A stretch of DNA of 31,968 nucleotides, from assembly GCA_031289865.1 (NCBI GenBank), contig JAITOQ010000008.1:1-31968 (forward strand), in the 5' to 3' direction. A program made the translations under genes and the position numbers. The stretch is from Clostridiales bacterium (GTDB lineage Bacteria; Bacillota; Clostridia; Christensenellales; JAISNN01). Each line of letters starts with the position of its first letter. Position 1 is the first letter of the stretch. Shown here in pieces: positions 5,355-19,912 of the stretch. Below the pieces are notes generated by a model. It ran no database searches and had not been told where the DNA came from. It saw only the letters and a program-made list of their open reading frames with translations.

Positions 5355-7187
5355 TTAAAATATATAATATTGCGCTTGCGCTTGCCACAGCTCGTAATAC
5401 TTACCGTTTTCATCCGCCATCAATTCGTTATGCGCGCCGTACTGGACGAGCCGCCCTTTGTCAAACACCGCTATCTTTCCGCAAAAGCGGCAAGACGATA
5501 GGCGGTGAGAGATATAGACCGCGCTTTTTTCGGCGACAAGCCCGTTAAATTTTGTATACAACTCATACTCGGCGACGGGGTCGAGGGATGCGGTCGGTTC
5601 GTCGAGTATGACAAACGGCGCATTTTTGTAAAGGGCGCGTGCAAGCGCGAGTTTTTGCGCCTCGCCGCCCGAAATTTCTACGCCGTCCTCCTCGCAATCC
5701 TTGTAGAGATATGTGTCTGTTCCTTTCGGCATACGCAATACACGCTCCTTGAGACCCGCACCGTCCAAAACCGTATCGGCACGCGCCGCGTCGCATTCGG
5801 TATCGCAAGCCAAATTGTCCGACACCCTAAAGGAAAAAATCTTAAAATCTTGAAAGACCACGGAGAAAAGCTTTCTGTATTCGTCGGTGTCAAAATCGCG
5901 TATATTTATCCCGTTCAAGAAAATTTCGCCCTCGTAGCCGTCGTACATTTTGGTCAACAGCTTGATAAAGGTCGTCTTTCCCGACCCGTTATGCCCGACG
6001 ATAGCCAGCCGCTCCCGTCCGTCGATTTTGATACTAAAATCCTTTAGCGCATAGCTCTCGCTCCCCGGATACTTAAAGCTAACGTTTTTAAACTCCGCAA
6101 CCAAATTTTTCGTGTCTATACCGCGCAAATCACGCGTACCGCACGGCTGATTTTCGGTGTCCGTGATAGCGAAATAGTAGCCGACTGTCTGCAAAATCTC
6201 GACGAAACAGCCCGCCCGCGTAAAGACCTCTATGAGCCCCGTGACGACTATCATAAAGCTCCCCGTGTACATGATGAGCGCGTCGATCTCAAACATGCCG
6301 ATCATGCCTTTTAAGCCGATAAACGCATAGACCCCAAAGCCCGCAATCGCGCCGACGACCGCAATAACTGAGGAGCTCATGCCCGTCGCCGTCGCAACCT
6401 TTTTACGAATCTTCACTCCCTTTTCTATCAAGTGATACGCCGCGTCGCGTTCTATCAAACGCTGCTCGTTAAATACGCGGATTTCCTTTCCGTTTTTGTA
6501 GTCGGACACGGTTTCCAAATAGTATTCAAAGATTTTGCTGAGATTGAGATACTGATCCTTTTGCTGAAACCAATATTTTTGCGTCTTTTTATTGACAAAA
6601 AACACAATTGCAATCAAGACCGCCATGACCCCGAACACCAGAAAGCCGAGGTACGGAGATTCGATAAAGGATGCACCCGTCTTTGAAAAATCAAACGCCC
6701 CGCGAAGAAACGGCGAAAGAACGACCACCGCCGCCACAATCGACACCAACCCGAACAAAAAGCCCCCTATCGCCCATGCAAGATAGCCGAAGTGGCTCCC
6801 TATCGCGTTTACGCTCTCCTTGTACTTCCTCGCCTTGCCGTCAAACTCCTTGTCCTCCAGCTTTTGATAGTCCACGGAGTACAGCTTCATAGCCGCTTTT
6901 TGGTACTCCCTCATATAAAGCCGCGGATAATTTGTAATCTCAGCCAAGCTCCCCAAAAAACTTTGGATCAGGTACGCTCCGAAATTCAGCCCGATCGCCA
7001 GCCCCGCAAAAAGCGTCAGCGTCCCCGCATCGCGCCCGCCCAAAAGCTCGCCCACAATCCGCGCCGTCAAGATAATGTTTATAAACGGCTTGACCGACTT
7101 GACCGCGCCGTTTAAAATCTGTAACGGCAACGCCCACGGCGATAGCTTAAACAACTCGCGTATACTGCGCATAAAAAGTTTAATCAT
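5355..7187 (-). CDS. ABC exporter, fused permease + ATP-binding subunit (610 aa)
   Basis: N-terminal TM helices; Walker A GHNGSGKTT, signature ISGGEAQK, Walker B VILDEPT, ISHRL. Confidence 0.93.
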   Translation of the reverse strand: MIKLFMRSIRELFKLSPWALPLQILNGAVKSVKPFINIILTARIVGELLGGRDAGTLTLFAGLAIGLNFGAYLIQSFLGSLAEITNYPRLYMREYQKAAMKLYSVDYQKLEDKEFDGKARKYKESVNAIGSHFGYLAWAIGGFLFGLVSIVAAVVVLSPFLRGAFDFSKTGASFIESPYLGFLVFGVMAVLIAIVFFVNKKTQKYWFQQKDQYLNLSKIFEYYLETVSDYKNGKEIRVFNEQRLIERDAAYHLIEKGVKIRKKVATATGMSSSVIAVVGAIAGFGVYAFIGLKGMIGMFEIDALIMYTGSFMIVVTGLIEVFTRAGCFVEILQTVGYYFAITDTENQPCGTRDLRGIDTKNLVAEFKNVSFKYPGSESYALKDFSIKIDGRERLAIVGHNGSGKTTFIKLLTKMYDGYEGEIFLNGINIRDFDTDEYRKLFSVVFQDFKIFSFRVSDNLACDTECDAARADTVLDGAGLKERVLRMPKGTDTYLYKDCEEDGVEISGGEAQKLALARALYKNAPFVILDEPTASLDPVAEYELYTKFNGLVAEKSAVYISHRLSSCRFCGKIAVFDKGRLVQYGAHNELMADENGKYYELWQAQAQYYIF

Positions 7188-7270
7188 ATTTTTTCCCTTT
7201 TTTTATTTTTATTGCCGTGGCTTTATGTTTTTTTCAGAATGTTTGTTTAATTTCGTTCTCTTTTTATCTG

Positions 7271-7302
7271 CAACTTTCAACTCTCAACTTTCCGCTTTCA
7301 AC
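7271..7302 (-). repeat. Heptamer array (GTTGAAA on minus strand) containing the stop codon of the upstream ABC gene
   Basis: caac tttcaac tctcaac tttccgc tttcaac; encodes the C-terminal KLKAES*. Confidence 0.85.
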
Positions 7303-9113
7303 TTATAATAATAGCTCTGTATCTCGTACATTCTGTAATAATGCCCCTTTTTTTCCATCAATTCATCATGCGTCCCGACCTCCGCAATCGCGCCGTCCCT
7401 CATAAAAAAAATGCGGTCGCAAAAGCGCGTGGAGGACAATCGGTGAGAGATAAAAAACGAGGTCTTATCATGCGAAAAATCGTTGTACTTAAGATACATC
7501 TCGTTCTCCGCGATAGGGTCGAGAGCGGCGGTCGGTTCGTCCAATATGAGTATCGGCGCGTCCTTGTAGAGAGCGCGTGCGAGGAGCAGCTTTTGGGTTT
7601 CGCCGCCCGAAAGATTTACCGCGTCCTCGTAGACTTTTTTTATGAGCCGCGTATCCGCCCCCTTTTCAAAGGTCTTAATTTTGTCCTTAAGCCCCGCCTC
7701 ATCGAGAACCGCGGCGACCCGTTCAGAGTCGATTTCCGACTCGTTCTCCTTGAGCGCAATGTTTTGACCGATACTCATCGGGAGCAATACATAGTCCTGA
7801 AAGACCGCCGCAAACAAGGTATAGTACTCTTTTTTGTCAAAGCGCGATATGTCTGTTCCGTTCAAAAGAATGCGTCCCGATTCGGGTTTGTAAAAGCCGC
7901 AAAGGAGCTTTATGCAAGTGGTTTTGCCCGCGCCGTTCTCCCCGACCACAGCGATTTTTTCGCCCGCTTCTATTTTGAACGACATATCTTTTATAGTCGG
8001 TTCGGTGCTCCCGCGATATGAAAAGGTGACGTTTTCAAATTCGATTTCGCAAGGAAATTCATCTTTTTTCGGTACGGAAACCGCGTCGAGAGCGGCGGGC
8101 GCAACCTCCTCGCGTTCGACGAACTCACGGTAGCGGCTCGCGTTAAAGGAAATGCGTTTCAGCTTAAAAATATTGCTCGTCAAGCTGAAAATCCATGCAA
8201 AAAAGCCCGTGACCAACGCGAAATAGAACACAAAATCCGACACGGAAATATCGTTTTTTAACACTCCGTTTATGAGATAGACAAACGCGGCAAGATCGCA
8301 AACGAGGGAGAGTACCGCGTGTGCGGCATGCGTCCCGATTTGGACTCCGAACAGTTTTTTTGAGGTCTTGTTTACTCCGCGTCCGATATCGTCCACAATT
8401 TTCAAAAAAAACCTTTTTACTCCGAATACGCGGACGTCCTTTCCCGCGGCAAAGTCGTTTGCAGTCTTAAATAGGTAGTTTGTCCGCATTTGCTGCGCTT
8501 TGTATTCGTCATAGACCTTTTTGGAACGCTTGTGATAATAGCTCTCTAAAGCAAAATTCGCCGCGCCCGCCGCGAGTACGATGAGTATCAAAATCGGACT
8601 GACGCTCGTCAAGAGAACGGTATAGGTAAAAAGCCCCGTCAGATTGACCGCCAGCTCCACACCCGCGTCAAAAAAACCGCGTGCGCCGTTTCCCCACGCT
8701 TGCGTAAAGCCCTTGCATTTTTCAAACGCAAGCCGACCCTCAAGACTCTCTATGTATTCGTAATCGGTATTCATCATCTTGCGAAAGGCGCGAATGCGAT
8801 ATTCCGTATTCATGTTTTCCGCGACAGCCGTACATTTTGACTGCAAAAACGGGTTGATCCATGTGATCGCCGCAATCAAAAACGACATCAACCCGACCAA
8901 TATCAAGAGCTTCCCGATCCCGAAGCCGCCCTCTATCGCATCGATCATAAGCTTGGGAATGAGCGCGGTCACGATAGGCAAAACCACAAGCGGCGGTATC
9001 CGCATTAGATACAGCCAAAAGCTCCCCTTGTCAAACGCCCGCCAATTTTGAAACAAATACTTGACGTTGTCTCTATCCGAATATTTTTGTTTTTCAGCTT
9101 TTGCTTTCGGCAT
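7284..9113 (-). CDS. ABC exporter, fused permease + ATP-binding subunit; likely heterodimer partner of 5355-7187
   Basis: GENGAGKTT, LSGGETQK, LILDEPT, ISHRL; ATG 9113 preferred over TTG 9122 from GGAG spacing. Confidence 0.93.
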   Translation of the reverse strand: MPKAKAEKQKYSDRDNVKYLFQNWRAFDKGSFWLYLMRIPPLVVLPIVTALIPKLMIDAIEGGFGIGKLLILVGLMSFLIAAITWINPFLQSKCTAVAENMNTEYRIRAFRKMMNTDYEYIESLEGRLAFEKCKGFTQAWGNGARGFFDAGVELAVNLTGLFTYTVLLTSVSPILILIVLAAGAANFALESYYHKRSKKVYDEYKAQQMRTNYLFKTANDFAAGKDVRVFGVKRFFLKIVDDIGRGVNKTSKKLFGVQIGTHAAHAVLSLVCDLAAFVYLINGVLKNDISVSDFVFYFALVTGFFAWIFSLTSNIFKLKRISFNASRYREFVEREEVAPAALDAVSVPKKDEFPCEIEFENVTFSYRGSTEPTIKDMSFKIEAGEKIAVVGENGAGKTTCIKLLCGFYKPESGRILLNGTDISRFDKKEYYTLFAAVFQDYVLLPMSIGQNIALKENESEIDSERVAAVLDEAGLKDKIKTFEKGADTRLIKKVYEDAVNLSGGETQKLLLARALYKDAPILILDEPTAALDPIAENEMYLKYNDFSHDKTSFFISHRLSSTRFCDRIFFMRDGAIAEVGTHDELMEKKGHYYRMYEIQSYYYKLKAES

Positions 9114-9136
9114 TTTTTGCAATGCTCCTGAATTAT

Positions 9137-11116
9137 TTATAGTTGACTTTCGTGCTTTTTAAAGAAATCAAACCGCGGCTCCAAAAACTTAAACGACTTG
9201 ACGTCGGGGTATATCTCTCCGAAGGTTTTTTCGGCGAGGTTCCAATCAAAGAGTTTTTTGTCCGCGTTCATATATTCCGCGGTGAGCTCCGCGCCGTCGG
9301 GAGTGATTGCGTGGAGCATGAGGACGCCGACTTTTATGACGTGGATTGTGTCGGTGATGAGAGAAGCACGCGTATCTATGTCGTCGGTTTTGGATTTTTC
9401 CGCCCATGTTTGGTTTGCCGAGCGGAAGTATTCGTCGATTATGCCGACGACGCCGTTAAACTCAAATTTATTCATATATTCCTCGTACTTTGCGAGTGCC
9501 TCTACCGCTTTTCGGAGGGTGTCCTCCGAAACGGACTTATTCGGCAATTTTCCGTCAAAATACTGTTGGAGCGAATAAAACACCGAACGGATAATCCGAT
9601 TAAAGATATTCGTCAGAATATTCCCTTGCAATAGTACGGGGTCTCCGCTCTTTTCAAACTCCTCCGGATAAAACGCTTTTGAGCGGAAGCTCGCGGTCGC
9701 AGAACCGATACCCTGTCCCAAAAAGTGCATACGGAGCTGTTCGACGGTATAGTAGTCCAAAAGGCTGTCCGCGGTCGGAGCTTTTACCTTGCCGCTGCTC
9801 CCCGCTTTGGCATTCCCCACCAAAAGGTGCTTATTTGCCACCACACGGGTCAAATTGAGCCTGCCGCTCTTTTTTTCTATCGTGTGACCTGCGCTTTGCG
9901 CCGCAAGAAAGACTCCCGTCTGTGCTAAGCAGTAAAAAAACACGTTATCTTCTCCGATAAATTGTACGACGCCCGCGTCCTTGTCGCACCACCAATCCGT
10001 CCATTCCGAGCCTTTACCCGTTCTTTTTCCCGCGGCGGAAAGATATGCGTCCGTGAATGAGATCGGAGCCCAAAGGGATTCGGGCCAAACGTAAAAGGTC
10101 AAGCCGTCGGTTTCGCCGCTTTTAAGTTTCGGCAGAGGCACTCCCCACTTGCAGTTTCCCGAAATACGGAACGGCGCAAGGGTTTTGTTGGAGCGATAGC
10201 GGATTCCCTCCGATTTTAAGAGTGCGCAAGCCTTGTCGCGAAGGGTCACGGAGGTGAATTTAAGCTGAACGCGCTTGTTTTTTTCGTCATAAAAGTAGAC
10301 GTGTTCGGGCAAACGGTCCAAAACCGCGTCGATCATGTCTTTTGCGGATTCGGAGATATAGAGGAGCGGCGGCTGTAAAAAGTCGCGCATGTCGCGGAGC
10401 ATAAATTTCCGCGCTCCGTCCCGTTCCAAAACCTCGCACCACGCACGAATCTCCTCCCTAAAAGCCTCCAACCTCAAATAATAGTTGGAAACAAGCTTCA
10501 TCTTAGGGGCGGTGTGAGAAAGCGTACTGACGGGATCGATAAGCTCCGACGGCGAATATTGATGCCCTAAGGCGCATTCGTCCGCATATCCGACCTCCGA
10601 CTTGCAGCCGTCGATAGGGCATTTCCCCTCGACCTGCCGCCCGTTCAAAATCATATCGAATTCCTCGTCGTAAAACTGTTCGGTGTCCTTTCGTTCCATA
10701 TAGCCGCTCTTTAGCATTTCCTCAAAAAAGTATGCGGAAATTTTTTCGTGCCGACGGTAGGACTCGCCGAAACAAGACGCGGCAAATAGGTCGAGTGAAA
10801 TCCCGTACCTCTCCAAAGTCGCCTTTTGGATATTGTGATAGCCCTCGACATATTCGGGGAGCGTCCCCGTATACTCGCCGCTCTCCTTTAGCTTGCGGTA
10901 CTTTTCCTCCGCAACCGAACCGAACCCGTCCGTACCCGAAACGAATATGACGTTTTCTTTTCCGATATTGTCCCGCATATAGCGCGCATACGCGTCCGCC
11001 CAAAGGAAAATCGCGCCTATATGCCCGATATGCAAGGGCTTGTTTCCGTTCGGCATACCCGCCGTAACGATAAGTCTTTTGGGGAAATTCGGTCTTGTGA
11101 GATTTGATTTTGGCAT
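9137..11116 (-). CDS. Divergent methionyl-tRNA synthetase-like protein (class I tRNA ligase family)
   Basis: PLHIGH, SGTDG, LNGRQVEGKCP Zn-knuckle, WGVP, FYVW, FIGED and anticodon-binding helical domain align with MetRS; KMSKS replaced by KAGSS; no C-terminal OB domain. Confidence 0.75.
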   Translation of the reverse strand: MPKSNLTRPNFPKRLIVTAGMPNGNKPLHIGHIGAIFLWADAYARYMRDNIGKENVIFVSGTDGFGSVAEEKYRKLKESGEYTGTLPEYVEGYHNIQKATLERYGISLDLFAASCFGESYRRHEKISAYFFEEMLKSGYMERKDTEQFYDEEFDMILNGRQVEGKCPIDGCKSEVGYADECALGHQYSPSELIDPVSTLSHTAPKMKLVSNYYLRLEAFREEIRAWCEVLERDGARKFMLRDMRDFLQPPLLYISESAKDMIDAVLDRLPEHVYFYDEKNKRVQLKFTSVTLRDKACALLKSEGIRYRSNKTLAPFRISGNCKWGVPLPKLKSGETDGLTFYVWPESLWAPISFTDAYLSAAGKRTGKGSEWTDWWCDKDAGVVQFIGEDNVFFYCLAQTGVFLAAQSAGHTIEKKSGRLNLTRVVANKHLLVGNAKAGSSGKVKAPTADSLLDYYTVEQLRMHFLGQGIGSATASFRSKAFYPEEFEKSGDPVLLQGNILTNIFNRIIRSVFYSLQQYFDGKLPNKSVSEDTLRKAVEALAKYEEYMNKFEFNGVVGIIDEYFRSANQTWAEKSKTDDIDTRASLITDTIHVIKVGVLMLHAITPDGAELTAEYMNADKKLFDWNLAEKTFGEIYPDVKSFKFLEPRFDFFKKHESQL

Positions 11117-11142
11117 AATGACACCTACTTTTTATCCTTAAT

Positions 11143-11170
11143 TTTCAACTTTCAACTTTCAATTTTCAAC
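11143..11170 (-). repeat. Four-unit heptamer array containing the aspS stop codon
   Basis: tttcaac tttcaac tttcaat tttcaac. Confidence 0.9.
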
Positions 11171-12896
11171 TTTTAATAGCAATATGTGTTTCAAGCAACT
11201 GTTTCGGCTCTAACGCGGACGGTGCGCCCATCATGAGGTCTTGGGCGTTTTTATTCATCGGGAATGCTATGACCTCTCTGATATTCGGCTCTCCCGCAAG
11301 GAGCATGACCATACGGTCAACCCCCGGAGCAATCCCCGCGTGAGGCGGTGCGCCGAAATGAAACGCGTTGTACATGGCGGGAAAGCGGCTTGCGACCACG
11401 TTTTCGTTAAGTCCGACGATTTCAAAGGCGCGGACTAACGCTTCGGGGTTGTGATTCCGTACCGCTCCGCTTGACAGCTCGATTCCGTTACAGACTATAT
11501 CGTATTGATAAGCCAAAATATCCAACGGATTCATATTGTTGAGCGCGTCAAGCCCGCCTTGCGGCATACTGAACGGATTGTGGCAAAACTCGATTTGCCC
11601 CGACTCCTCTCCTATCTCGTACATCGGAAAATCCACTATCCAACAAAATTTGTAGACGTCTTGTTCGGTCAGACCGAGTACCTCGCCGAGGCGCGTCCGG
11701 AGTAGTCCCGCCGTTTTTTCTATTTTTCCCTTTTTACCCGCGACGATTCCGACAAAAGCGTTCGGAGCTAAGTTTAGCGCGGCTTTTATCTCGTTTTCCT
11801 TTTCTGTCAAAAATTTTGCAATCCCGCCGTTTAAGCGGTTTTCGCCGTCGGTCTTGACCCAAAACAGCTTTCCCTCGTTTTGACCGATATATTCGACGGT
11901 TTCGTCGATAGTCTTTCTCGTCCCCGCGAAATTTTGCACGACGACGGCTTTGACTGTGTTTTCCTTAAAATCCGCGAACGCGCCGTCTTTCACAAACGCG
12001 GTGATATCCTTGACAAAAAGCGGATTCCTAAGGTCGGGCTTGTCGCTCCCGTAGTTTTCCACCGCGTCGCGGTATGTGATTCGCGGAAACGGCACTTCGG
12101 CTATCCGCTTATCGGAAAATTCTCTAAAAATTTCGGGTAAAACTCCTTCGAGTTCGGTGAACACGTCCTCTTGGCTCGCAAAAGCCATTTCCATATCCAT
12201 CTGATAAAATTCGCCCGGTGAGCGGTCGGCTCTCGCGTCCTCGTCCCTAAAGCACGGCGCAATCTGAAAGTACTTGTCAAAACCCGCCGTCATGAGTATC
12301 TGTTTAAAAATCTGCGGAGCTTGCGGGAGCGCGTAAAATTTACCGGGGTGAACTCTACTCGGTACTATATAGTCCCGCGCACCCTCCGGAGATGAGCTTG
12401 TGAGTATCGGCGTCGTGATTTCCAAAAATCCTCTCGCGGTCATCTTTGCGCGAAGTGCGGAAACCACACGCGAACGGAGGACGATTTTGTCCTTGACCGT
12501 CGGGTTTCGGAGATCCAAAAAGCGGTATTTGAGCCGAGTTTCCTCTTTTGACTGTAGGGAATTCCCTATCTCAAACGGGAGCTGCTCGCTGCAGCGTCCC
12601 AAAACCTCGATTTTGGTCGGCGCAATCTCGATTAAGCCCGTAGGGAGCTTAGGATTCGGCGCGGAGCGCAAAACCACGCGCCCGTCTACCGCGACGGTGG
12701 ATTCACGCGGAATACTCCTAAGCTCGTTTTTTGTTTTTTCGTCGTCCGCGGTTATCTGCGTCACGCCGTAAAAATCGCGTATCGTAGCAAAAATAATGTT
12801 GCCGATGTCGCGTGTTCCTTGTAGCCACCCCTCGATTCTGACGGTTTTGCCCGCGTCGGTGTCGCGTAATTCGTTGCAAGTGTGAGTTCTTCTCAT
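11166..12896 (-). CDS. aspS: Aspartate--tRNA ligase
   Basis: RTHTC, EGARDY, ALPQAPQ, CFRDED, GEFYQMD, GIELSSG, GAPPHAG motifs; GAGGA SD supports ATG 12896; RDIG rather than RDHG suggests the discriminating type. Confidence 0.97.
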   Translation of the reverse strand: MRRTHTCNELRDTDAGKTVRIEGWLQGTRDIGNIIFATIRDFYGVTQITADDEKTKNELRSIPRESTVAVDGRVVLRSAPNPKLPTGLIEIAPTKIEVLGRCSEQLPFEIGNSLQSKEETRLKYRFLDLRNPTVKDKIVLRSRVVSALRAKMTARGFLEITTPILTSSSPEGARDYIVPSRVHPGKFYALPQAPQIFKQILMTAGFDKYFQIAPCFRDEDARADRSPGEFYQMDMEMAFASQEDVFTELEGVLPEIFREFSDKRIAEVPFPRITYRDAVENYGSDKPDLRNPLFVKDITAFVKDGAFADFKENTVKAVVVQNFAGTRKTIDETVEYIGQNEGKLFWVKTDGENRLNGGIAKFLTEKENEIKAALNLAPNAFVGIVAGKKGKIEKTAGLLRTRLGEVLGLTEQDVYKFCWIVDFPMYEIGEESGQIEFCHNPFSMPQGGLDALNNMNPLDILAYQYDIVCNGIELSSGAVRNHNPEALVRAFEIVGLNENVVASRFPAMYNAFHFGAPPHAGIAPGVDRMVMLLAGEPNIREVIAFPMNKNAQDLMMGAPSALEPKQLLETHIAIKS

Positions 12897-13126
12897 ATTT
12901 TTCCTCATTATTATAGAATTTTGTTCATTTTTAGCCTATATATCCTATGAAATGCCGTCGTTATCGCTCCCATTATCATTAAACATCATATTCTCTTGAA
13001 AGGGCGAATACTCGACTTTTTTCCGCTAACTACCTTTCTTTCGCAATAAAATTCATTATCACTTAATATTGTGTCGCTATAATAACCTCAATCATTATAC
13101 AGCGGCTAAAGATATACTTACTTAAT

Positions 13127-13155
13127 AGTATATTACCGAAAAGAAATTTTGTCAA
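13127..13155 (-). promoter_or_regulatory. sigmaA promoter upstream of aspS
   Basis: TTGACA(13155-13150)-17 bp-TATACT(13132-13127); implies a ~220-nt leader. Confidence 0.7.
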
Positions 13156-13257
13156 ATAAAATCACCGTAACTAAGTGCGGCAACACGTTTGTTTTTAAAG
13201 GTTTTCAAAAACAAGGTGCATATTTTACAATATTTTATAATATATCGGTGTTTTTCC

Positions 13258-13286
13258 TTGCTTTTATTTCTTTTTTTTGGTATAAT
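13258..13286 (+). promoter_or_regulatory. sigmaA promoter with extended -10 for the MarR gene
   Basis: TTGCTT-17-TATAAT preceded by TG; AGGGAGG SD at 13321. Confidence 0.7.
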
Positions 13287-13333
13287 GTAAGTAACATCAC
13301 TGTTAATTTAAACATATTTTAGGGAGGTTCAAC

Positions 13334-13816
13334 ATGAAAAAGCAAAAAATTAACGCATTAGCAAACGATATCGTCGAGTTCTCGCCGATCATCAAAAAGA
13401 GTTTCATCGAAAACGTCATGCAGTTTAAGGACAAAGGGATTTCAAATCACCAGTTTTTCTGCATCTTAATCTTGCGTAAAAGCGGACCGTTGACGATGAG
13501 CACACTCGCCGACGCAATGAACGTGTCAAAACAACAATTGACCCGTATCGTTGACGAATTAGTCAAGAGCGACATCGTAGAACGCTACACAGATTCAACC
13601 AACCGCCGTTTGGTCTTCGCTCAACTCAGCGCAATCGGCGAAGCACGCGCAAAAGTACTTGACGAAAACGTTCAAAACCGTGCCGCCGAAGTACTCGGCG
13701 ATCTTTCGGACGCTGACATCGAAAAAGCGGTGGAGAGCGTAAAATGCTTAGTCGGACTTTGTAAAAAGATTTCGACAAAAAATCCGCCGTCCAAAAAAGT
13801 GGTTATTGACGACTAA
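13334..13816 (+). CDS. MarR-family transcriptional regulator
   Basis: LTMSTLADAMNVSKQQLTRIVDELVKSDIVERYTDSTNRR winged-HTH pattern. Confidence 0.9.
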   Translation: MKKQKINALANDIVEFSPIIKKSFIENVMQFKDKGISNHQFFCILILRKSGPLTMSTLADAMNVSKQQLTRIVDELVKSDIVERYTDSTNRRLVFAQLSAIGEARAKVLDENVQNRAAEVLGDLSDADIEKAVESVKCLVGLCKKISTKNPPSKKVVIDD

Positions 13817-14379
13817 TGCCCTCACGGAGTTTCACGTTCGAGGTATTGCTCCCCGACGGTAATTCTCTTTTGGTCTTAGTTCAAAAAAAACCCGAAATCA
13901 AAAATTTTAACCTTTCCGTCCGTCCGCGTGACGGACGGATACGGTTATCCGTGCCCGTTTCCGTCGGAAACGACGCGATCAAACACTTTTTAATCTCTAA
14001 AGCCGCATGGATTGAAAAGCGTTTAACTGTATCAACTAATACGGTTCAACCCATCAAAAAGTCCGAATATGACAAAGAAGTCGTTTCGGTCTTTTTGTCG
14101 TTTGTAAAAGAACGTACCGCCTATTGGGAAAGCGTCACAAACCTCGCCTCATCGGCAATACGCGTCAAAAACATGACCTCGCGCTACGGCAGCTGCAACG
14201 TCAAAACAAAAAAAATCACGATAAGCCTTATACTGATCGACAAACCGCCGATCTGCCTCGACTATGTGATCGTCCACGAACTCACCCACCTCGTGACGCG
14301 GTTTCACGACAAAACCTTTTATGCTCATTTAGAACGCTTTTTTCCGAATAGAAAAGAAGCGGAGAAAATGTTAAGATGA
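13816..14379 (+). CDS. M48-family / YgjP (DUF45, SprT-like) zinc metalloprotein
   Basis: MTSRYGSC, DYVIVHELTHL, HDKTFY; translationally coupled (TAATG) to the MarR gene. Confidence 0.88.
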   Translation: MPSRSFTFEVLLPDGNSLLVLVQKKPEIKNFNLSVRPRDGRIRLSVPVSVGNDAIKHFLISKAAWIEKRLTVSTNTVQPIKKSEYDKEVVSVFLSFVKERTAYWESVTNLASSAIRVKNMTSRYGSCNVKTKKITISLILIDKPPICLDYVIVHELTHLVTRFHDKTFYAHLERFFPNRKEAEKMLR

Positions 14380-14426
14380 AAAACAAGGGAGGGTTTTTGC
14401 GAACAAAAATCCTCCCTTATTTTTTT
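14380..14426. terminator. Bidirectional terminator between convergent genes
   Basis: aaaaacaagggagggtttttg-cgaa-caaaaatcctcccttatttttt. Confidence 0.75.
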
Positions 14427-14429
14427 AAT

Positions 14430-14696
14430 TTATTTATAAATATCGTTCCTATGTCCCACTTGCAAAATTAGGATTGTGACCGTAGACTCAGATATCTCCG
14501 CAATGATGCGGTAATCGCCGATTCTGTACCGCCATACTCCGCTTAGGTTCGCCGTCAACCCCTTACCGTGCGCCCTCGGATTTTCACACCCGTTAAGATT
14601 TTTCTCAATCCATGCGACAATAAGCCGCGAAGTGGTTTTGTCCAGCTTTTTTAAATTTTTTAAAGCACGTTCCGAATATAAAATCGAGTAGCTCAA
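14430..14696 (-). CDS. relE: Type II toxin, RelE/StbE family
   Basis: NPRAHGKGLTANLSGVWRYRIGDYRII...VGHRNDIYK. Confidence 0.92.
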   Translation of the reverse strand: MSYSILYSERALKNLKKLDKTTSRLIVAWIEKNLNGCENPRAHGKGLTANLSGVWRYRIGDYRIIAEISESTVTILILQVGHRNDIYK

Positions 14697-14914
14697 ATCA
14701 ACCCAAGCTCCTTTTTAACTTCGTCATGAGTATAAGTTTTCCCGCTCGCCGCATGTTCTTTTGCGGCTTTTTCGTAAAGCTTGATATCAAATTCGTCTTC
14801 AATCTTTTCCATTACGGCAAGACGTACGACCTCGGAAATTGTGACTCCGTGTAATTCCGCATAACCCCGTATTACATTGTACTCGTCATCACTTATTCTT
14901 AATGAAATAGACAT
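14693..14914 (-). CDS. Cognate antitoxin (RelB/DUF6290-like, N-terminal ribbon-helix-helix)
   Basis: MSISLRISDDE...MEKIEDEFD...KTYTHDEVKKELG; 4-bp overlap with the toxin gene. Confidence 0.88.
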   Translation of the reverse strand: MSISLRISDDEYNVIRGYAELHGVTISEVVRLAVMEKIEDEFDIKLYEKAAKEHAASGKTYTHDEVKKELGLI

Positions 14915-14931
14915 ACTCTCTCACCTCCTTG

Positions 14932-14968
14932 CGTAATACATTGTAATACATAATATGCGAAAAGTCAA
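14932..14968 (-). promoter_or_regulatory. TA operon promoter with autoregulatory operator repeats
   Basis: TTGACT(14968-14963)-17-TACAAT(14945-14940); two GTAATACA copies overlap the -10. Confidence 0.7.
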
Positions 14969-15012
14969 GGGGAATTATGCTATTTTTTTAATTTTTTTAT
15001 TTCTTCCGCAAT

Positions 15013-15039
15013 TTTCAACTTTCAACTTTCAACTTTCAC
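15013..15039 (-). repeat. Heptamer array containing the ClC stop codon
   Basis: tttcaac x3 + tttcac. Confidence 0.88.
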
Positions 15040-16382
15040 TTTTTCTTCTTCCCCCACTCCCTCAGCTTCTCTAACCATCTGCTGTAGATAAACCGTTCCG
15101 ACGGGTGTTCCGCGGTTTCGGATTCGAGCCAAACGCCCGTGATTTTGGATTCCTTCATCATTTGCGTCGGGTAGACGCTTCTGTGCCCCGTGACGATATA
15201 TGCGATGGAGCAAGCGACGGCCGCAAGCACCGCAAGCGACGGATTCAAAAACATCTCAAAAGCCATGACGATACATGCGAGAGGGGTGTTTGTCGCGCTT
15301 GCTAGTACCGCGAGCATTCCGAGCGCGGAAAAAACCACGGGGTCGAGATGAAACAGCGCGGCAAACGCGCTCCCCGACGTGATCCCGATAAACATAAGCG
15401 GAGTGAGTATCCCGCCGCTCCCTCCGAAAGAGAGCGTAATCGCGGTAAACACAATCTTTAGGAGAAAGTCGTATCCGCGTGCGGGGTCGCCCCCGATAAT
15501 CCTTGTAAAGTAGCCGATACCCATGCCGAGATAGTCCGTCCCGAACACGAGCGCGAGGAGTACGATCGCCGCGCCGCCTATTAAGCCCTTTAACGGCTTG
15601 TAGATTTTGATTTTGTTTGCAATTTTGTGCGTCCCGCCGAGGACGAGTATCGTCAGCATAGAAACCAACCCGAAGAATATCCCCGCCCCAAGCGCGATTC
15701 CCACGGTCGGGAGCGCGTTATTCCACGCAAGCGTGAGAAAAATTTCGGGCATTTTTTCCGTTTCTATCCCGAACGCCGATGACACAAAATAGCCCGCAAG
15801 CGAAGCAATCATAACGGGAAAAATATTTTTAAGGTCGATTCGTCCTACAATCAATACTTCTATCGCAAAGATTGCCGCGGCGACGGGCGTACCGAATATA
15901 GCCGCAAAAGCCGCCGCCATACCCGCGACGACAAGCCGCTTTGTGTCCTTTTCGTCGAGGTGAAAAAGCCCCGCGAGAAAGCTTGCCGCCCCCGCGCCGA
16001 TTTGCGTCGTCGGACCTTCCTTTCCCGCCGAACCGCCGCTCCCTATCGTGATGACCGTCGCAATGATTTTGACGGGAACCACGCCGAGTTTGATTCTCCC
16101 GCCCCTTTTGTGAATAGCCTCTATCGCTTTTTCCGTCCCGTGCCCCTCCGCACCCGGCGCAAGATGCTTGACGGCAAACGCGGACAAAAACATACCGATC
16201 GGCAAAAACAAATAGTAGTAGGAAAAGCCCGCCGCAAAACCGCTCGCGGTGTTTAACAGCCAAATAAAGCCCGCGCCTATCGCGCCGACCGCCGCCCCCG
16301 TGACGCCGCTCAACAACAGCCACTTCACCAAATATGCAAAAAAGAGGAAAAGCCCGACGGCTTTTTGTTTTATCTTCTCCAT
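15036..16382 (-). CDS. ClC-family chloride channel / Cl-/H+ antiporter, no CBS domains
   Basis: GHGT (GSGIP-position) motif, GSAGKEGP with gating Glu, FGTPVAAAIFAIE, GGSGGILTP, NTPL. Confidence 0.92.
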   Translation of the reverse strand: MEKIKQKAVGLFLFFAYLVKWLLLSGVTGAAVGAIGAGFIWLLNTASGFAAGFSYYYLFLPIGMFLSAFAVKHLAPGAEGHGTEKAIEAIHKRGGRIKLGVVPVKIIATVITIGSGGSAGKEGPTTQIGAGAASFLAGLFHLDEKDTKRLVVAGMAAAFAAIFGTPVAAAIFAIEVLIVGRIDLKNIFPVMIASLAGYFVSSAFGIETEKMPEIFLTLAWNNALPTVGIALGAGIFFGLVSMLTILVLGGTHKIANKIKIYKPLKGLIGGAAIVLLALVFGTDYLGMGIGYFTRIIGGDPARGYDFLLKIVFTAITLSFGGSGGILTPLMFIGITSGSAFAALFHLDPVVFSALGMLAVLASATNTPLACIVMAFEMFLNPSLAVLAAVACSIAYIVTGHRSVYPTQMMKESKITGVWLESETAEHPSERFIYSRWLEKLREWGKKKK

Positions 16383-16431
16383 AACTATTTATTATTTTAC
16401 TACTTATGCGAGATTTTTGCAAGTGTTTAGA

Positions 16432-16473
16432 TGTCATTCTGAACGAAGTGAAGAATCTCAAACGGTTAGCCGT
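16432..16473 (+). repeat. TGTC-type REP, left arm of an inverted pair
   Basis: tgtcattctgaacgaagtgaagaatctcaaacggttagccgt; inverted partner at 17541-17581. Confidence 0.88.
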
Positions 16474-16514
16474 ACAATAGCCGACAAAAAGTCGGTGTCA
16501 TTCGTAGTAGTCCG

Positions 16515-16847
16515 TCATGATTTGTAATCATAAGCAATTTTATTATATTTCTTTCCATTTAGGTCAACGATAAAGCCGTCCACGATTTTGCACGGTGAAT
16601 CCTTGGATTTTATTTCCTCCAAAATATCGTCGTCGGTTATGCCCGATACCCAAACGACCTCCAAATCACCAACAAATAAACCATGCCCCTCGTCATCGGC
16701 GAAAGTAACGGGATCTGCGATACAAACGAATACTTCTCTATGTATATCACCGATCCAAGCGAATAAAATATGCCCCTCGTCGCCTTTTTTAACGCCCTCT
16801 TTCACGTAGTTATCGTTGAGAACTCTCACTCTGTCTAAATATTTCAT
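16515..16847 (-). CDS. Putative immunity/antitoxin protein (DUF4926-like N-terminus)
   Basis: YLDRVRVLNDNYVKEGVKKGDEGHIL pattern; small and acidic; 4-bp overlap with the upstream putative toxin. Confidence 0.55.
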   Translation of the reverse strand: MKYLDRVRVLNDNYVKEGVKKGDEGHILFAWIGDIHREVFVCIADPVTFADDEGHGLFVGDLEVVWVSGITDDDILEEIKSKDSPCKIVDGFIVDLNGKKYNKIAYDYKS

Positions 16848-17452
16848 TTGATAAAACCTCCAAACGGTGTATTGTTTTTAATTTTCCCATTAGGAAAAAC
16901 CATCCAGCCGGTATAAAAATAGTATTCTTTCTCGGGAGTTCTTCCTTTGCTTCTGATTGTACACGGAATACTGATTCTTTGACCGTATTTGTTCAATTCA
17001 CCTATCACATAATTTCCGTTTCCATAGTTTTCAATTGATTGCGCCTTTATTATATCATACAACTCCTGCGCTTCGGCAAGCGTATAACCCATGTATTTTT
17101 CAAATAATATTTTTTTGTCTTTTTCTACAAACGCATATTCCGTTATTTTTTTCATCGGAAAATCCAGAATTACATCTGCCGGCGAAAATTCATTTACCGA
17201 CAGTAATCTACACTTGCAATTTTTATGCAACTGTCCCGGTCCTAAATTCTCGTCTGCATACAACCTCGGCATTTTTTCAATGTCGTTGACAAAAATACAA
17301 TCGTTTACGGCGACACAATATAAGCACGTTTTTGTAATCGGATCGTCTTGTACTTCCTTTACAAAGCTCTCCCTATTTAACTTCGATCGTGCTTTTCTTT
17401 TCACCCATTTTGTCGTAACAAAATAATTTTCCGCGGCATCAAATATCCCCAT
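16844..17452 (-). CDS. Putative polymorphic toxin: MuF-like (phage minor head) Cys/His motif + DUF6883-like C-terminal domain
   Basis: TCLYC...HKNCKC resembles the MuF TCxxC...HPNCRC motif; KITEYAF..K..LF..MGY..YG.R..TGW resembles DUF6883; AAAGGAGG SD; AT-rich. Confidence 0.6.
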   Translation of the reverse strand: MGIFDAAENYFVTTKWVKRKARSKLNRESFVKEVQDDPITKTCLYCVAVNDCIFVNDIEKMPRLYADENLGPGQLHKNCKCRLLSVNEFSPADVILDFPMKKITEYAFVEKDKKILFEKYMGYTLAEAQELYDIIKAQSIENYGNGNYVIGELNKYGQRISIPCTIRSKGRTPEKEYYFYTGWMVFPNGKIKNNTPFGGFIK

Positions 17453-17540
17453 AAAATCCTCCTTTGATTTCGATATTACATTACCATATTAAAAAGTCGA
17501 GTTCTCGTTTTTATGCCATGTATTTTCGCTATGCAATTGA

Positions 17541-17581
17541 ACGGCTAACCGTTTGAGATTCTTCGCAAGCTCAGAATGACA
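17541..17581 (-). repeat. TGTC-type REP, right arm of an inverted pair
   Basis: 17541-17564 is the exact reverse complement of 16450-16473. Confidence 0.88.
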
Positions 17582-17722: not shown

Positions 17723-19912
17723 ATGCCAAATGTTTTAATTTATTTTATAGTATTCGTATCTGTCGCGGTCGCGGGTTCGCTCGCCTTTGCGCTCTACAAC
17801 TTTTTCCGTGTCAAAAAGTTGAAAAGCGGTACCGACGCCATGAACGAAATCGCCTCCGCAATCAGCGAGGGTGCGAGCGCGTTTATCGCGCATGAGTACA
17901 AGGTGATAGGTATCACCGCCGCAATAGTCGCGGTCGTCCTCGGTGTCATTCTCGACCCGTGGAGCGCAATCGCGTTTGCACTCGGTATCATTCTTTCGGG
18001 TTCGGCGGGCTTTGTCGGCATGAAGATCGCGACTATCGCAAACGTCCGCGTTGCCAATACCGCACGCGAAACACGCTCCCTCGGCAAGACCCTCAAGGTA
18101 GCTTTCCGCGGCGGCAGCGTCATGGGACTGTGCGTAGGCGGCTTTGCACTCCTCGGTCTTTTAATCTGTTTCCTCGTATTCGGTTTAGGCGCGGGACAAT
18201 TAAACGTCGAAAACATCAAGCTCACAAAAAACCTGATCGGAATCGAATACATACCGTTTACAATGGTCGTATCCTGCTATGCGCTCGGCTGCTCGATGGT
18301 CGCGCTCTTTAACCGTATCGGCGGCGGTATCTATACCAAAGCCGCGGACATGGGTGCGGATCTCGTCGGCAAGACGGAAGAACACATTCCCGAAGACGAC
18401 GCCCGCAACCCCGCCACTATCGCCGACAACGTAGGCGACAACGTAGGCGACGTCGCGGGGCTTGGGAGCGACCTCTTAGAGAGCTATGTCGGCGCAATCA
18501 TCGCCGCCGTCATCCTCTCCGCATACACCTTTATCACCACCCTTGCAACCGATAGAGAGTTTAGCGGCAAGTTGCTCCAACGTCTTATGCTGTTTCCCGT
18601 CACCTTTGCGGGCGTGGGCGTCATCGCGTGTATATTCGGTATCGGCTACGTCATCTTTAAAAAAGCCAGCAACAAGCCGCACCGCGAATTAAACATCGCG
18701 CTCTGGTCGTCCGCCGCAATCATCGTCGTAGGAGGTTGCGTCCTCTCGTGGGCGTTCTTTAAAGACTTCACGGGAAAAGAAATAGAAACTCTCGGCTTTA
18801 ATCTCGGCGAATTTTCGCCTTGGGTGGGTACGGTCATCGGTATAGTATGCGGTATCGTCATCGGTATGCTTGCCGAATACTACACCAGCGCGGATCACAA
18901 GCCGACACAAAACCTTGCTAAAATCACCACCGAAGGCACCGCACTCACCATCACAAGAGGGCTTGCGCTCGGGATGAAAAGCTGTTTTTTTCCCGTCATC
19001 GTCTTAGGACTTGCGGTCATCGGATCGTATGCGGCGGCGGGCGTGTACGGAGTCACAATGGCGGCGGTCGGTATGCTCTCTTTCGTCGCGGCGACGGTTT
19101 CCGTCGACACCTACGGACCTATCGCGGATAACGCGGGCGGTATCAGCGAAATGAGCAAGCTTGACCACGAGGTTCGTGAAATCACCGACAAGCTCGACTC
19201 CGTCGGAAATACCACGGCGGCTATCGGAAAAGGCTTTGCTATCGGGAGCGGCGCGCTTGCCGCGTTAAGTCTGTTGATATCGTTTATCCACAGCCAACTC
19301 AAGGCGGGCGAATCCGCAGAAGCCACATTAAATATCATCGACGCACTCACCCTTGCGGGCGCGTTTATCGGCGGCGCGCTGCCGTTCTTCTTTTCGGGGC
19401 TTCTGACCGACGCGGTCGCAAAGAGCGCGCAGCACATGGTCAAAGAGGTTCGCCGTCAGTTTAGAGAAAAACCGGGCATTTTGGACGGTACCGAAAAGCC
19501 CGATTACAAGCAATGTATCAAGATTTCCGCGGCGGGCGCAATCAAGGAAATGAAACTCCCCGTCCTCATCGCGGTCGCGCTTCCTTTGGTCGGCGGGTTT
19601 TTGCTCGGCGCAAAGTTTGTCGGAGGAATCCTCATCGGCGCAACCATTACCGCTATCATGATGGCAATCTTTACCGCCAACGCGGGCGGCGCATGGGACA
19701 ACGCCAAAAAAGCTATCGAACAAGGCTTTATAAAGGGTGTCGGCAAAGGCTCGAAAGAGCATGACGCCGCCGTCGTCGGAGATACCGTAGGCGATCCGCT
19801 AAAGGATACAGTCGGACCGTCGCTCGATATCTTAATCAAAATTATGGCGACCGTCTCCCTCATCGGCGTCGCTATCTTCGGACAGTTTAATCTGTTGGCG
19901 CTGTTTAGCTAA
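17723..19912 (+). CDS. hppA: Membrane-bound ion-translocating pyrophosphatase, K+-dependent type (probably Na+-pumping)
   Basis: GGGIYTKAADMGADLVGKTE, EDDARNP, DNVGDNVGD, GGAWDNAKK, GDTVGDPLKD; GNTTAA (Ala, not Lys) marks K+-dependence. Confidence 0.96.
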   Translation: MPNVLIYFIVFVSVAVAGSLAFALYNFFRVKKLKSGTDAMNEIASAISEGASAFIAHEYKVIGITAAIVAVVLGVILDPWSAIAFALGIILSGSAGFVGMKIATIANVRVANTARETRSLGKTLKVAFRGGSVMGLCVGGFALLGLLICFLVFGLGAGQLNVENIKLTKNLIGIEYIPFTMVVSCYALGCSMVALFNRIGGGIYTKAADMGADLVGKTEEHIPEDDARNPATIADNVGDNVGDVAGLGSDLLESYVGAIIAAVILSAYTFITTLATDREFSGKLLQRLMLFPVTFAGVGVIACIFGIGYVIFKKASNKPHRELNIALWSSAAIIVVGGCVLSWAFFKDFTGKEIETLGFNLGEFSPWVGTVIGIVCGIVIGMLAEYYTSADHKPTQNLAKITTEGTALTITRGLALGMKSCFFPVIVLGLAVIGSYAAAGVYGVTMAAVGMLSFVAATVSVDTYGPIADNAGGISEMSKLDHEVREITDKLDSVGNTTAAIGKGFAIGSGALAALSLLISFIHSQLKAGESAEATLNIIDALTLAGAFIGGALPFFFSGLLTDAVAKSAQHMVKEVRRQFREKPGILDGTEKPDYKQCIKISAAGAIKEMKLPVLIAVALPLVGGFLLGAKFVGGILIGATITAIMMAIFTANAGGAWDNAKKAIEQGFIKGVGKGSKEHDAAVVGDTVGDPLKDTVGPSLDILIKIMATVSLIGVAIFGQFNLLALFS

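Follow-up and report, generated by a model that had tools for sequence, protein, structure and literature searches.

MuF polymorphic toxins have been described in temperate phages (Jamet et al. 2017, PMC5576092), and MuF-based delivery was reported by Zhang et al. (2012), as cited by Iyer et al. (2017, PMC5512222). A preprint (bioRxiv 10.64898/2026.08.28.747851) equates the domain DUF6883 with BECR-Tox3, which commonly occurs with a downstream DUF4926 and is often fused to Phage_Mu_F. The C-terminal CdiA toxin domains (CdiA-CT) of Klebsiella pneumoniae 342 (Kp342) and E. coli 3006 are tRNases with a Lys-Tyr-Thr triad, formed by K157, Y160 and T255 in the former and by K204, Y208 and T330 in the latter (review, PMC9086364). 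Here, a pair of small genes is analysed in a 31,968-nucleotide stretch of DNA, hereafter the window, from a Clostridiales bacterium (assembly GCA_031289865.1, contig JAITOQ010000008.1). The window is one contig (C196) of a 1.93-Mb metagenome-assembled genome (MAG) that consists of 263 contigs and is 84.5% complete; a termite-gut metagenome, probably its source, is the single sequencing run found with this stretch, and no RNA run is listed. The domains concerned and their pairing have already been described, in the preprint cited above, by Jamet et al. (2017) and by Iyer et al. (2017). It is fairly probable that the pair is a toxin-immunity module that derives from the MuF toxins of phages, was acquired horizontally and now stands on its own, and that the inverted repeat arms on both sides of it are incidental. 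The core of this reading, namely a putative RNase toxin with a co-translated SH3-type immunity protein, horizontally acquired and of MuF-toxin ancestry, is taken as well supported.

The toxin candidate, an open reading frame (ORF) of 202 aa (positions 16844-17452, minus strand), comprises a small MuF-derived N-terminal module followed by a DUF6883/BECR domain. It is followed on the same strand by the immunity or antidote candidate (110 aa; 16515-16847), which is predicted to form a divergent DUF4926-like SH3-type barrel (residues 1-70) with a C-terminal extension. A Shine-Dalgarno sequence, GGAGGA (17457-17462, minus strand, read from the sequence), stands 5 nt ahead of the toxin start codon, and the toxin TGA shares an ATGA overlap with the ATG of the 110-aa ORF. 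Both genes are intact and translationally coupled. They contain 36% and 40% GC, compared with 54% for the two flanking genes, which encode a ClC chloride channel (15036-16382, minus strand) and the H+-pyrophosphatase HppA (hppA, 17723-19912, plus strand), and the GC content of the whole cassette, 37.6%, lies at the 5th percentile among the 938-bp windows of the genome. An earlier note on this stretch had reported two overlapping AT-rich genes between inverted arms with an exact 24-mer in common, at a locus free of phage and transposase genes, and these observations stand: a scan of the 32-kb window found no phage gene, no transposase gene and no other phage remnant. A PF04233 search of the whole assembly gave no match, and a sigma-70 scan of the cassette gave no convincing promoter.

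The C-terminal half of the toxin candidate (residues 95-202; 16847-17170, minus strand) is predicted to adopt a BECR (colicin D/CdiA-CT-like) RNase fold, and the 202-aa protein is probably an RNA-cutting toxin. Its own match to DUF6883 (PF21814) has an E-value of 7e-4 and 20.2 bits against a gathering score of 27, and a Pfam search with the 110-aa partner gave no match at E <= 1, DUF4926 (PF16277) included. Because the direct Pfam scores of both proteins lie below the cut-offs, support was taken from the family level. When a 12-sequence profile was run against a library of 1.84 billion proteins, 557 proteins were matched, 40 of them at E <= 1e-30, and many were about 200 aa long and matched at full length. 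DUF6883 was recognised in 39 of 63 aligned family members, the best with an E-value of 1.4e-10, so that the DUF6883-like domain named in the earlier note is borne out for the family. Among the longer hits, the DUF6883-type domain forms the C-terminal tip of RHS-repeat, PAAR-like and peptidoglycan-binding carriers, and in ESM Atlas clusters the same domain also tips WXG100, VG15 and Phage_Mu_F proteins. Because it is found as the C-terminal tip on so many carriers, its architecture is that of a polymorphic-toxin tip.

The AlphaFold (AF2) model of the toxin has a pLDDT of 93.6 and a pTM of 0.87. In a VIA search, residues 95-202 matched CdiA-CT of Kp342 (6cp9_A) best, with a Z-score of 10.0 and an rmsd of 2.5 over 99 aligned residues, followed by CdiA-CT of E. 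coli 3006 (Z 7.8) and then by RelE, ParE and BrnT toxins (Z 5-6). Foldseek with the whole toxin model gave no match in the PDB at E <= 0.001, and a sequence-profile search of the PDB with the toxin gave a chance hit only. Across the 63 aligned members, K102 is conserved in 62, K113 in all and T195 in 54, with Ser in four more; Y106 is conserved in 47, and 12 others carry another aromatic residue at this position. By aligned range, K102, Y106 and T195 would fall near K157, Y160 and T255 of Kp342.

The 110-aa protein is, as judged from its homologues and its model, a divergent DUF4926-like SH3-barrel immunity candidate. Its 14 homologues are 41-55% identical, and PF16277 was matched by four of 16 aligned homologues, the best with an E-value of 1.6e-7; at this level the DUF4926-like partner proposed in the earlier note is supported. 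In the partner model (pLDDT 76.5), residues 1-70 form an SH3/KOW-like barrel, and the rest of the chain adds a helix and a small sheet. Structural matches to the barrel reach a Z-score of 7.1, SH3/KOW being a generic fold. Among the related loci with a called toxin ORF, 20 of 24 have a gene of 74-129 aa after the toxin, usually overlapping it, and the products of these genes have the common start MK(Y/L/F)xD..V...KG..G. The toxin-immunity pair that the note had proposed is supported. No helix-turn-helix (HTH) or ribbon-helix-helix (RHH) family was found in a scan of the partner. A complex prediction for the toxin and the 110-aa protein scored 0.02 and was used neither for nor against binding.

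The N-terminal 94 residues of the toxin carry W16, C43, C46, C52, H76, C79 and C81. Each of these is kept in 58-63 of the 63 members except C52, which is kept in 50. The segment from residue 43 to residue 81 (17210-17326, minus strand) forms a CxxC...HxxCxC module that was aligned by hhalign with the C-terminal tail of Phage_Mu_F: the N-module profile matched a MuF alignment from same-order genomes with 93% probability and an E-value of 2.4e-7, over MuF positions 68-109 of 112. The profile comparison thus indicates that the stub is homologous to the MuF tail (its last 40 or so positions) and not to the full MuF domain, and the MuF-type ancestry that had been proposed for the TCxxC...HxNCxC motif holds in this restricted form. 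Direct matches are sparse. PF04233 was matched by four of the 63 members (best E-value 1.6e-6), a small in-house MuF hidden Markov model (HMM) by nine, and the PHROG head-morphogenesis and minor-head families by a few; the 202-aa protein itself gave no match to PF04233 at E <= 1. The best BFVD matches to the toxin model are entries named 'minor capsid protein'. Genomes of the same order also contain short open frames (185-197 aa) that exceed the Pfam MuF cut-off solely through the C-terminal part of that profile. One of them (L044 in genome G100), a protein of about 197 aa with the same architecture and a DUF4926-type gene downstream, exceeds the cut-off on PF04233 positions 37-111 only.

The stub is not confined to DUF6883 toxins. 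In two others of these short frames (L042, G104:C15; L045, G092:C1), proteins of about 180-190 aa join a MuF-tail Cys/His stub to a barnase-like RNase, and a barstar-like gene comes after each of them. Because at least two toxin/immunity types share the stub, it is a module that forms the N-terminus in a small family of polymorphic toxins. Two long proteins that seemed to carry the Cys/His region, P0136 and P0125, turned out to be an Rhs-type and another carrier, both without it. Language-model look-alikes of the N-module (score 0.86), which are small viral proteins, one cluster having PF04233 in 15% of its members, were retained as leads only. The first five residues of the toxin, MGIFD (17438-17452), are invariant in the 12 closest homologues and follow the pattern M-x-[IV]-F-[DE] family-wide. 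They are modelled as disordered (pLDDT 56) and may be a short docking or processing motif.

The stand-alone family of about 200 aa is mostly chromosomal, lying among housekeeping genes of gut Clostridia, and the toxin-bearing relatives are Christensenellaceae and other gut Clostridia MAGs. Five homologous loci viewed in detail have housekeeping or sugar-metabolism neighbours, and housekeeping families dominate among 111 neighbours of 24 genome loci, with Amidase_3/endolysin at four loci and a few integrase and tail hits. A tblastn search with the toxin found no counterpart among GenBank phages or PLSDB plasmids. In all five congeners, ClC and hppA lie on separate contigs, and ClC keeps its YgjP/MarR neighbours in four of them. 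Because ClC and hppA are separate in the congeners and ClC keeps neighbours of its own, the cassette sits at a synteny break and not in a shared arrangement; it is not found at this site in the five congeners, in contrast with the fixed, syntenic cassette that the earlier note would have counted against its reading. The cassette is accessory.

No toxin match was found in the congeners G002, G003 and G005. G004 (L030, C64:17-547) and G001 (L031, C70:112-486) contain N-terminally truncated DUF6883 remnants at other loci. Behind each remnant, a DUF4926-like ORF extends as far as the examined stretch reaches, and the G001 remnant lies downstream of a putative murG-like gene. From their sequences, these remnants look like decay of the toxin with retention of the immunity gene. 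The four contigs that hold the protein P0169 (L054-L057) carry the homologous pair within an integrative element that also encodes Rep proteins and a serine recombinase; one version of it has PcfJ/PcfK as well. In two of these four places, the toxin is split into pieces of 45-51 aa and 80 aa, and the immunity gene is intact.

The inverted arms of the cassette are REP (repetitive extragenic palindromic) units. The left unit (16433-16481, plus strand) has a stem-loop at 16433-16459 with the loop ACGAAGT and a tail hairpin, ACGG-TTAG-CCGT; the right unit (17533-17580, minus strand) has a stem-loop at 17557-17580 with the loop GCTTGC and the same tail hairpin. The exact 24-mer common to both arms occupies 16450-16473 and 17541-17564, and the arms differ in the REP loop, as had been noted. 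A truncated further copy (16480-16503, plus strand), consisting of the leader AAAAAGTCGGT and then GTCATTC, adjoins the 3' end of the cassette and ends 11 nt before its stop codon. The arms are similar far above the chance expected for random sequence, because a dispersed REP family supplies both copies. This family has the architecture GTCATTCTGA, loop, GAAGAATC, mostly with a second small hairpin as a tail. It is represented by eight or nine copies in the window (positions 437, 4117, 4264, 5060, 5157, 16433, 17557, 20121 and 20891) and, across the 1.93-Mb assembly, by about 447 copies distributed over 348 sites, or about one per 4.3 kb. The gap between neighbouring copies has a median of about 1 kb, and it measures 0.3-3 kb in about 111 pairs. 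Pairs closer than 2 kb show each of the four possible combinations of orientation, and inverted pairs about 74 bp apart form a frequent class. The loop sub-families of the two arms differ in abundance: ACGAAGT has 12 copies and GCTTGC, the commonest type, 142. In the search across genomes, the latter was counted 155 times here, once in one congener and not at all in 39 other relatives. None of the 15 related loci scanned for the REP (L017-L031) contains it, and roughly 215 kb of loci drawn from five congeners and three genomes of the same order are free of it. The REP burst is specific to this species among the 41 genomes searched.

The pair is carried by two IMG/VR contigs, L085 and L086. On L086, it stands in the classical MuF position: the toxin gene begins within the last bases of a P22-like portal gene, and the immunity gene comes next. 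On L085, the pair comes after an amidase. In L080 and L085, an element of the L086 kind carries the pair at its end. The in-house MuF HMM found no MuF-like ORF in L085 or L086 and missed the toxins there too, hence it is too insensitive for this purpose. The genome under study (G000) has a phage-like head cluster of about 10 kb on another contig (C87, about 6699-16460; L089/L090) beside dnaX and recR, with genes for a terminase, a P22-type portal (8688-10553), scaffold-like and capsid-like proteins and others. It is colinear with L086 over nine genes in matching order, the portal being 47% and the capsid-like protein 52% identical, but it has no counterpart of the toxin pair found behind the L086 portal. 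The C87-type portal is present in 16 of 41 same-order relatives, with an identity that drops with phylogenetic distance from 71% in the closest congener, and the head genes beside it are colinear across the fetched loci. From its gene content and distribution, C87 could be a domesticated particle or gene transfer agent (GTA)-like locus, or a member of a widespread prophage family.

Several explanations can be weighed against these data. The earlier note had proposed that the cassette is mobilised by its REP ends, the two inverted arms being the ends of a composite mobile unit that carries both genes. The inverted orientation of the arms (plus, then minus), their common 24-mer and the foreign composition of the cassette all agree with this proposal, and the 16-nt tails of the arms are identical, which is so in 0.23% of random hairpin-type REP pairs and, among 52 adjacent hairpin-type pairs, in this one only (0.12 expected). 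Because the pair was picked after the fact, the tail identity is a weak hint at most. Against mobilisation stand the great number of REP copies and of neighbouring pairs in every orientation. The loops belong to different sub-families, which argues against either arm being a recent copy of the other. No target-site duplication was visible at the outer ends of the arms, and a search of the assembly for a second cassette copy found none, so that the cassette is single-copy. The Y1-transposase (RAYT-like) match in the assembly is sub-threshold only (G000:C186:587-709). Metagenome contigs break at the REPs, where the depth is 400-2300x compared with about 10x across the cassette and its flanks, and the sole joint that skips the cassette has a flank of 21 nt inside the repeat, so that these contigs offer no trustworthy empty site. 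A repeat-bounded mobile unit would have element-specific terminal inverted repeats, a target-site duplication and multi-copy cargo; here, the repeats are those of the whole genome and the cargo occurs once. Moreover, the REP burst is essentially confined to one species and the cassette family is far more widespread across gut Clostridia, and the bracket is therefore incidental. Mobilisation by the arms is highly improbable: they are incidental copies of a genome-wide REP family and do not count as evidence that the cassette has moved on them. Almost as little weight is given to the view that the pair is an inert relic, the last remaining piece of a decayed prophage with no function today. Its phage-related ancestry, the decayed toxins in congeners and the broken toxin genes in some integrative-element copies would fit such a relic, but neither frame is broken, the ribosome-binding site is strong, translation of the two genes is coupled, the conserved Cys/His, Lys, Tyr and Thr positions are all present, no other phage remnant lies within 32 kb, and the stand-alone form of about 200 aa is a conserved family with 40 representatives at E <= 1e-30. 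The relic is thus very unlikely, and it ranks lowest together with REP mobility.

The main rival is that the toxin is capsid cargo in trans: the mini-MuF module would dock it on the portal or procapsid of a particle of its own cell, such as one of the C87 type, or of an infecting phage, the RNase would be injected into the next cell, and the immunity protein would protect kin. The homology of the N-module with the MuF tail, the position of the L086 toxin against the portal, the end positions of the pair in L080 and L085 and the colinearity of C87 with L086, though C87 is without the cassette, are in line with this idea, as are the strong conservation of the N-module in chromosomal copies, the occurrence of the stub with barnase and barstar, and the immunity-like ORFs that congeners retain beside decayed toxins. 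The earlier note had thought of loading into helper-phage heads or of anti-phage defence, and the C87 cluster, being colinear with a viral contig whose portal gene is directly followed by a homologous pair, bears on these ideas. On the other hand, housekeeping genes surround most of the family loci examined, with no head gene closer than 8 kb, the pair does not follow the portal at any of 11 portal loci viewed in relatives, and the portal is present in four of six toxin-bearing genomes and in 12 of 35 others, a co-occurrence that is weak and not significant among these 41 relatives. A comparison of the cassette with the C87 head cluster gave a chance 10-mer only and no common promoter motif. 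On balance, capsid cargo is unlikely. It is distinctly unlikely that the MuF remnant of 94 residues serves as a portable tag for docking on portals, by which chromosomal copies would load the RNase into C87 P22-portal-type capsids or would sense an invading portal and so bring about abortive infection. On that reading, a fragment of a structural head protein would have gained a new use, in targeting or in sensing, within a modular toxin family of both the DUF6883-DUF4926 and the barnase-barstar type.

The free-standing toxin-immunity module of MuF ancestry therefore remains the favoured explanation, and the pair would act as follows. The toxin would cleave tRNA or another RNA, and the 110-aa protein would neutralise it through direct binding. 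The pair would persist at a phage-free chromosomal site as an addiction or abortive-infection-type module, in which the MuF-derived part may be an interface to phage head or portal proteins and not a structural head protein. The REP hairpins on both sides would serve as terminators or mRNA stabilisers at most. Several points weigh against this explanation. Neither protein alone reaches the Pfam gathering score, and the mapping to the Kp342 triad follows from aligned ranges and conservation, not from a residue-level superposition. The occurrence of the stub with barnase and barstar in related genomes, as read from sequence, is a modularity typical of delivered polymorphic toxins. An intracellular role like that of toxin-antitoxin (TA) systems alone leaves the conservation of the MuF module and of M-x-[IV]-F-[DE] in chromosomal copies unexplained. 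Finally, the identical 16-nt tails leave room, as a weak hint, for a specific relation between the two arms.

Two further features lie near the other end of the ClC gene. A ParE-toxin/DUF6290 (RelB-like) antitoxin pair at 14430-14914, between a YgjP-like gene and ClC, is about 2 kb from the cassette; in congener G003, these two genes are separated by 15 bp, so that this second toxin-antitoxin pair, too, is an insertion, at the end of ClC opposite the cassette. Tandem heptamers (TTTCAAC/GTTGAAA) at 15005-15038 belong to another dispersed repeat, which also occurs on G000:C87 at about 6410-6440, 6640-6680 and 10554-10640, and the depth of the metagenome contig at the copy in the window is about 1300x.

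If the stub does act as a tag that binds capsids or portals, it would offer a minimal handle, open to test, by which proteins could be loaded into phage-like particles, or else a phage sensor of a new kind. Otherwise, the locus would simply be another RNase toxin-antidote pair. For genome reading in general, the arms call for caution: where a REP occurs every 4 kb, being bracketed by inverted repeats says little. Like REP and BIME-type palindromes elsewhere, the present repeats are short, GC-rich, imperfect and intergenic, occur in hundreds of copies and often form inverted or tandem pairs. They differ in that, of the 41 genomes searched, a single species shows the expansion of the family.

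Type II antitoxins have a DNA-binding domain and are usually encoded first. The present pair resembles type II toxin-antitoxin systems with RelE/ParE-fold toxins in its two small overlapping genes, in its RelE/ParE-like fold (Z 5-6) and in its stand-alone chromosomal context. In contrast, the toxin gene comes first here, the partner has no DNA-binding domain, and the toxin carries a phage-derived module of 94 aa, so that the pair does not have the type II arrangement. The CdiA-CT/CdiI systems of Klebsiella pneumoniae 342 (6CP9) and E. coli 3006 (6CP8/6VEK) provide the best structural matches to the toxin, with Lys, Tyr and a C-terminal Thr at comparable positions. However, the toxin sequence identity is 15%, delivery in contact-dependent inhibition (CDI) is by type V secretion in Proteobacteria, and the partner here is an SH3-like barrel in which no likeness to CdiI was detected. 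With BECR-Tox3 and DUF4926 (PF16277), as described in the preprint cited above, the locus has the toxin domain, the type of partner and the toxin-then-immunity order in common. It differs from them in that both proteins are divergent and fall below the Pfam cut-offs and in that the immunity candidate has an extra C-terminal extension of about 45 aa; a minimal-stub, phage-free form is not described in the passages of the preprint considered here (bioRxiv 10.64898/2026.08.28.747851).

Features of the MuF toxins (PMC5576092) are shared in part. A CxxC...HpnCxC motif stands ahead of a C-terminal toxin extension of at least 100 aa, here residues 95-202, and is followed by a small downstream immunity ORF, which at 110 aa is below 150 aa. 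The position beside a portal gene in a head module is found only in the viral relative L086, where the toxin gene comes right after the portal. The differences concern size and setting: the protein has 202 aa compared with 400-700 aa, of the 112 Pfam MuF positions it retains about 40 only, the larger N-terminal body of MuF is missing entirely, no phage genes lie at the locus, and most examined members of the present family are chromosomal and stand-alone. The 94 residues that precede the toxin domain do not amount to the N-terminal MuF domain by which such toxins are recognised (PF04233 or the MuF1-4 profiles). Because it has neither a full MuF domain nor a head-module location, the locus is not counted as a member of the MuF toxins. 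By definition, a MuF toxin is a head protein of a phage that bears a toxic tip, whereas the family described here keeps the Cys/His tail only.

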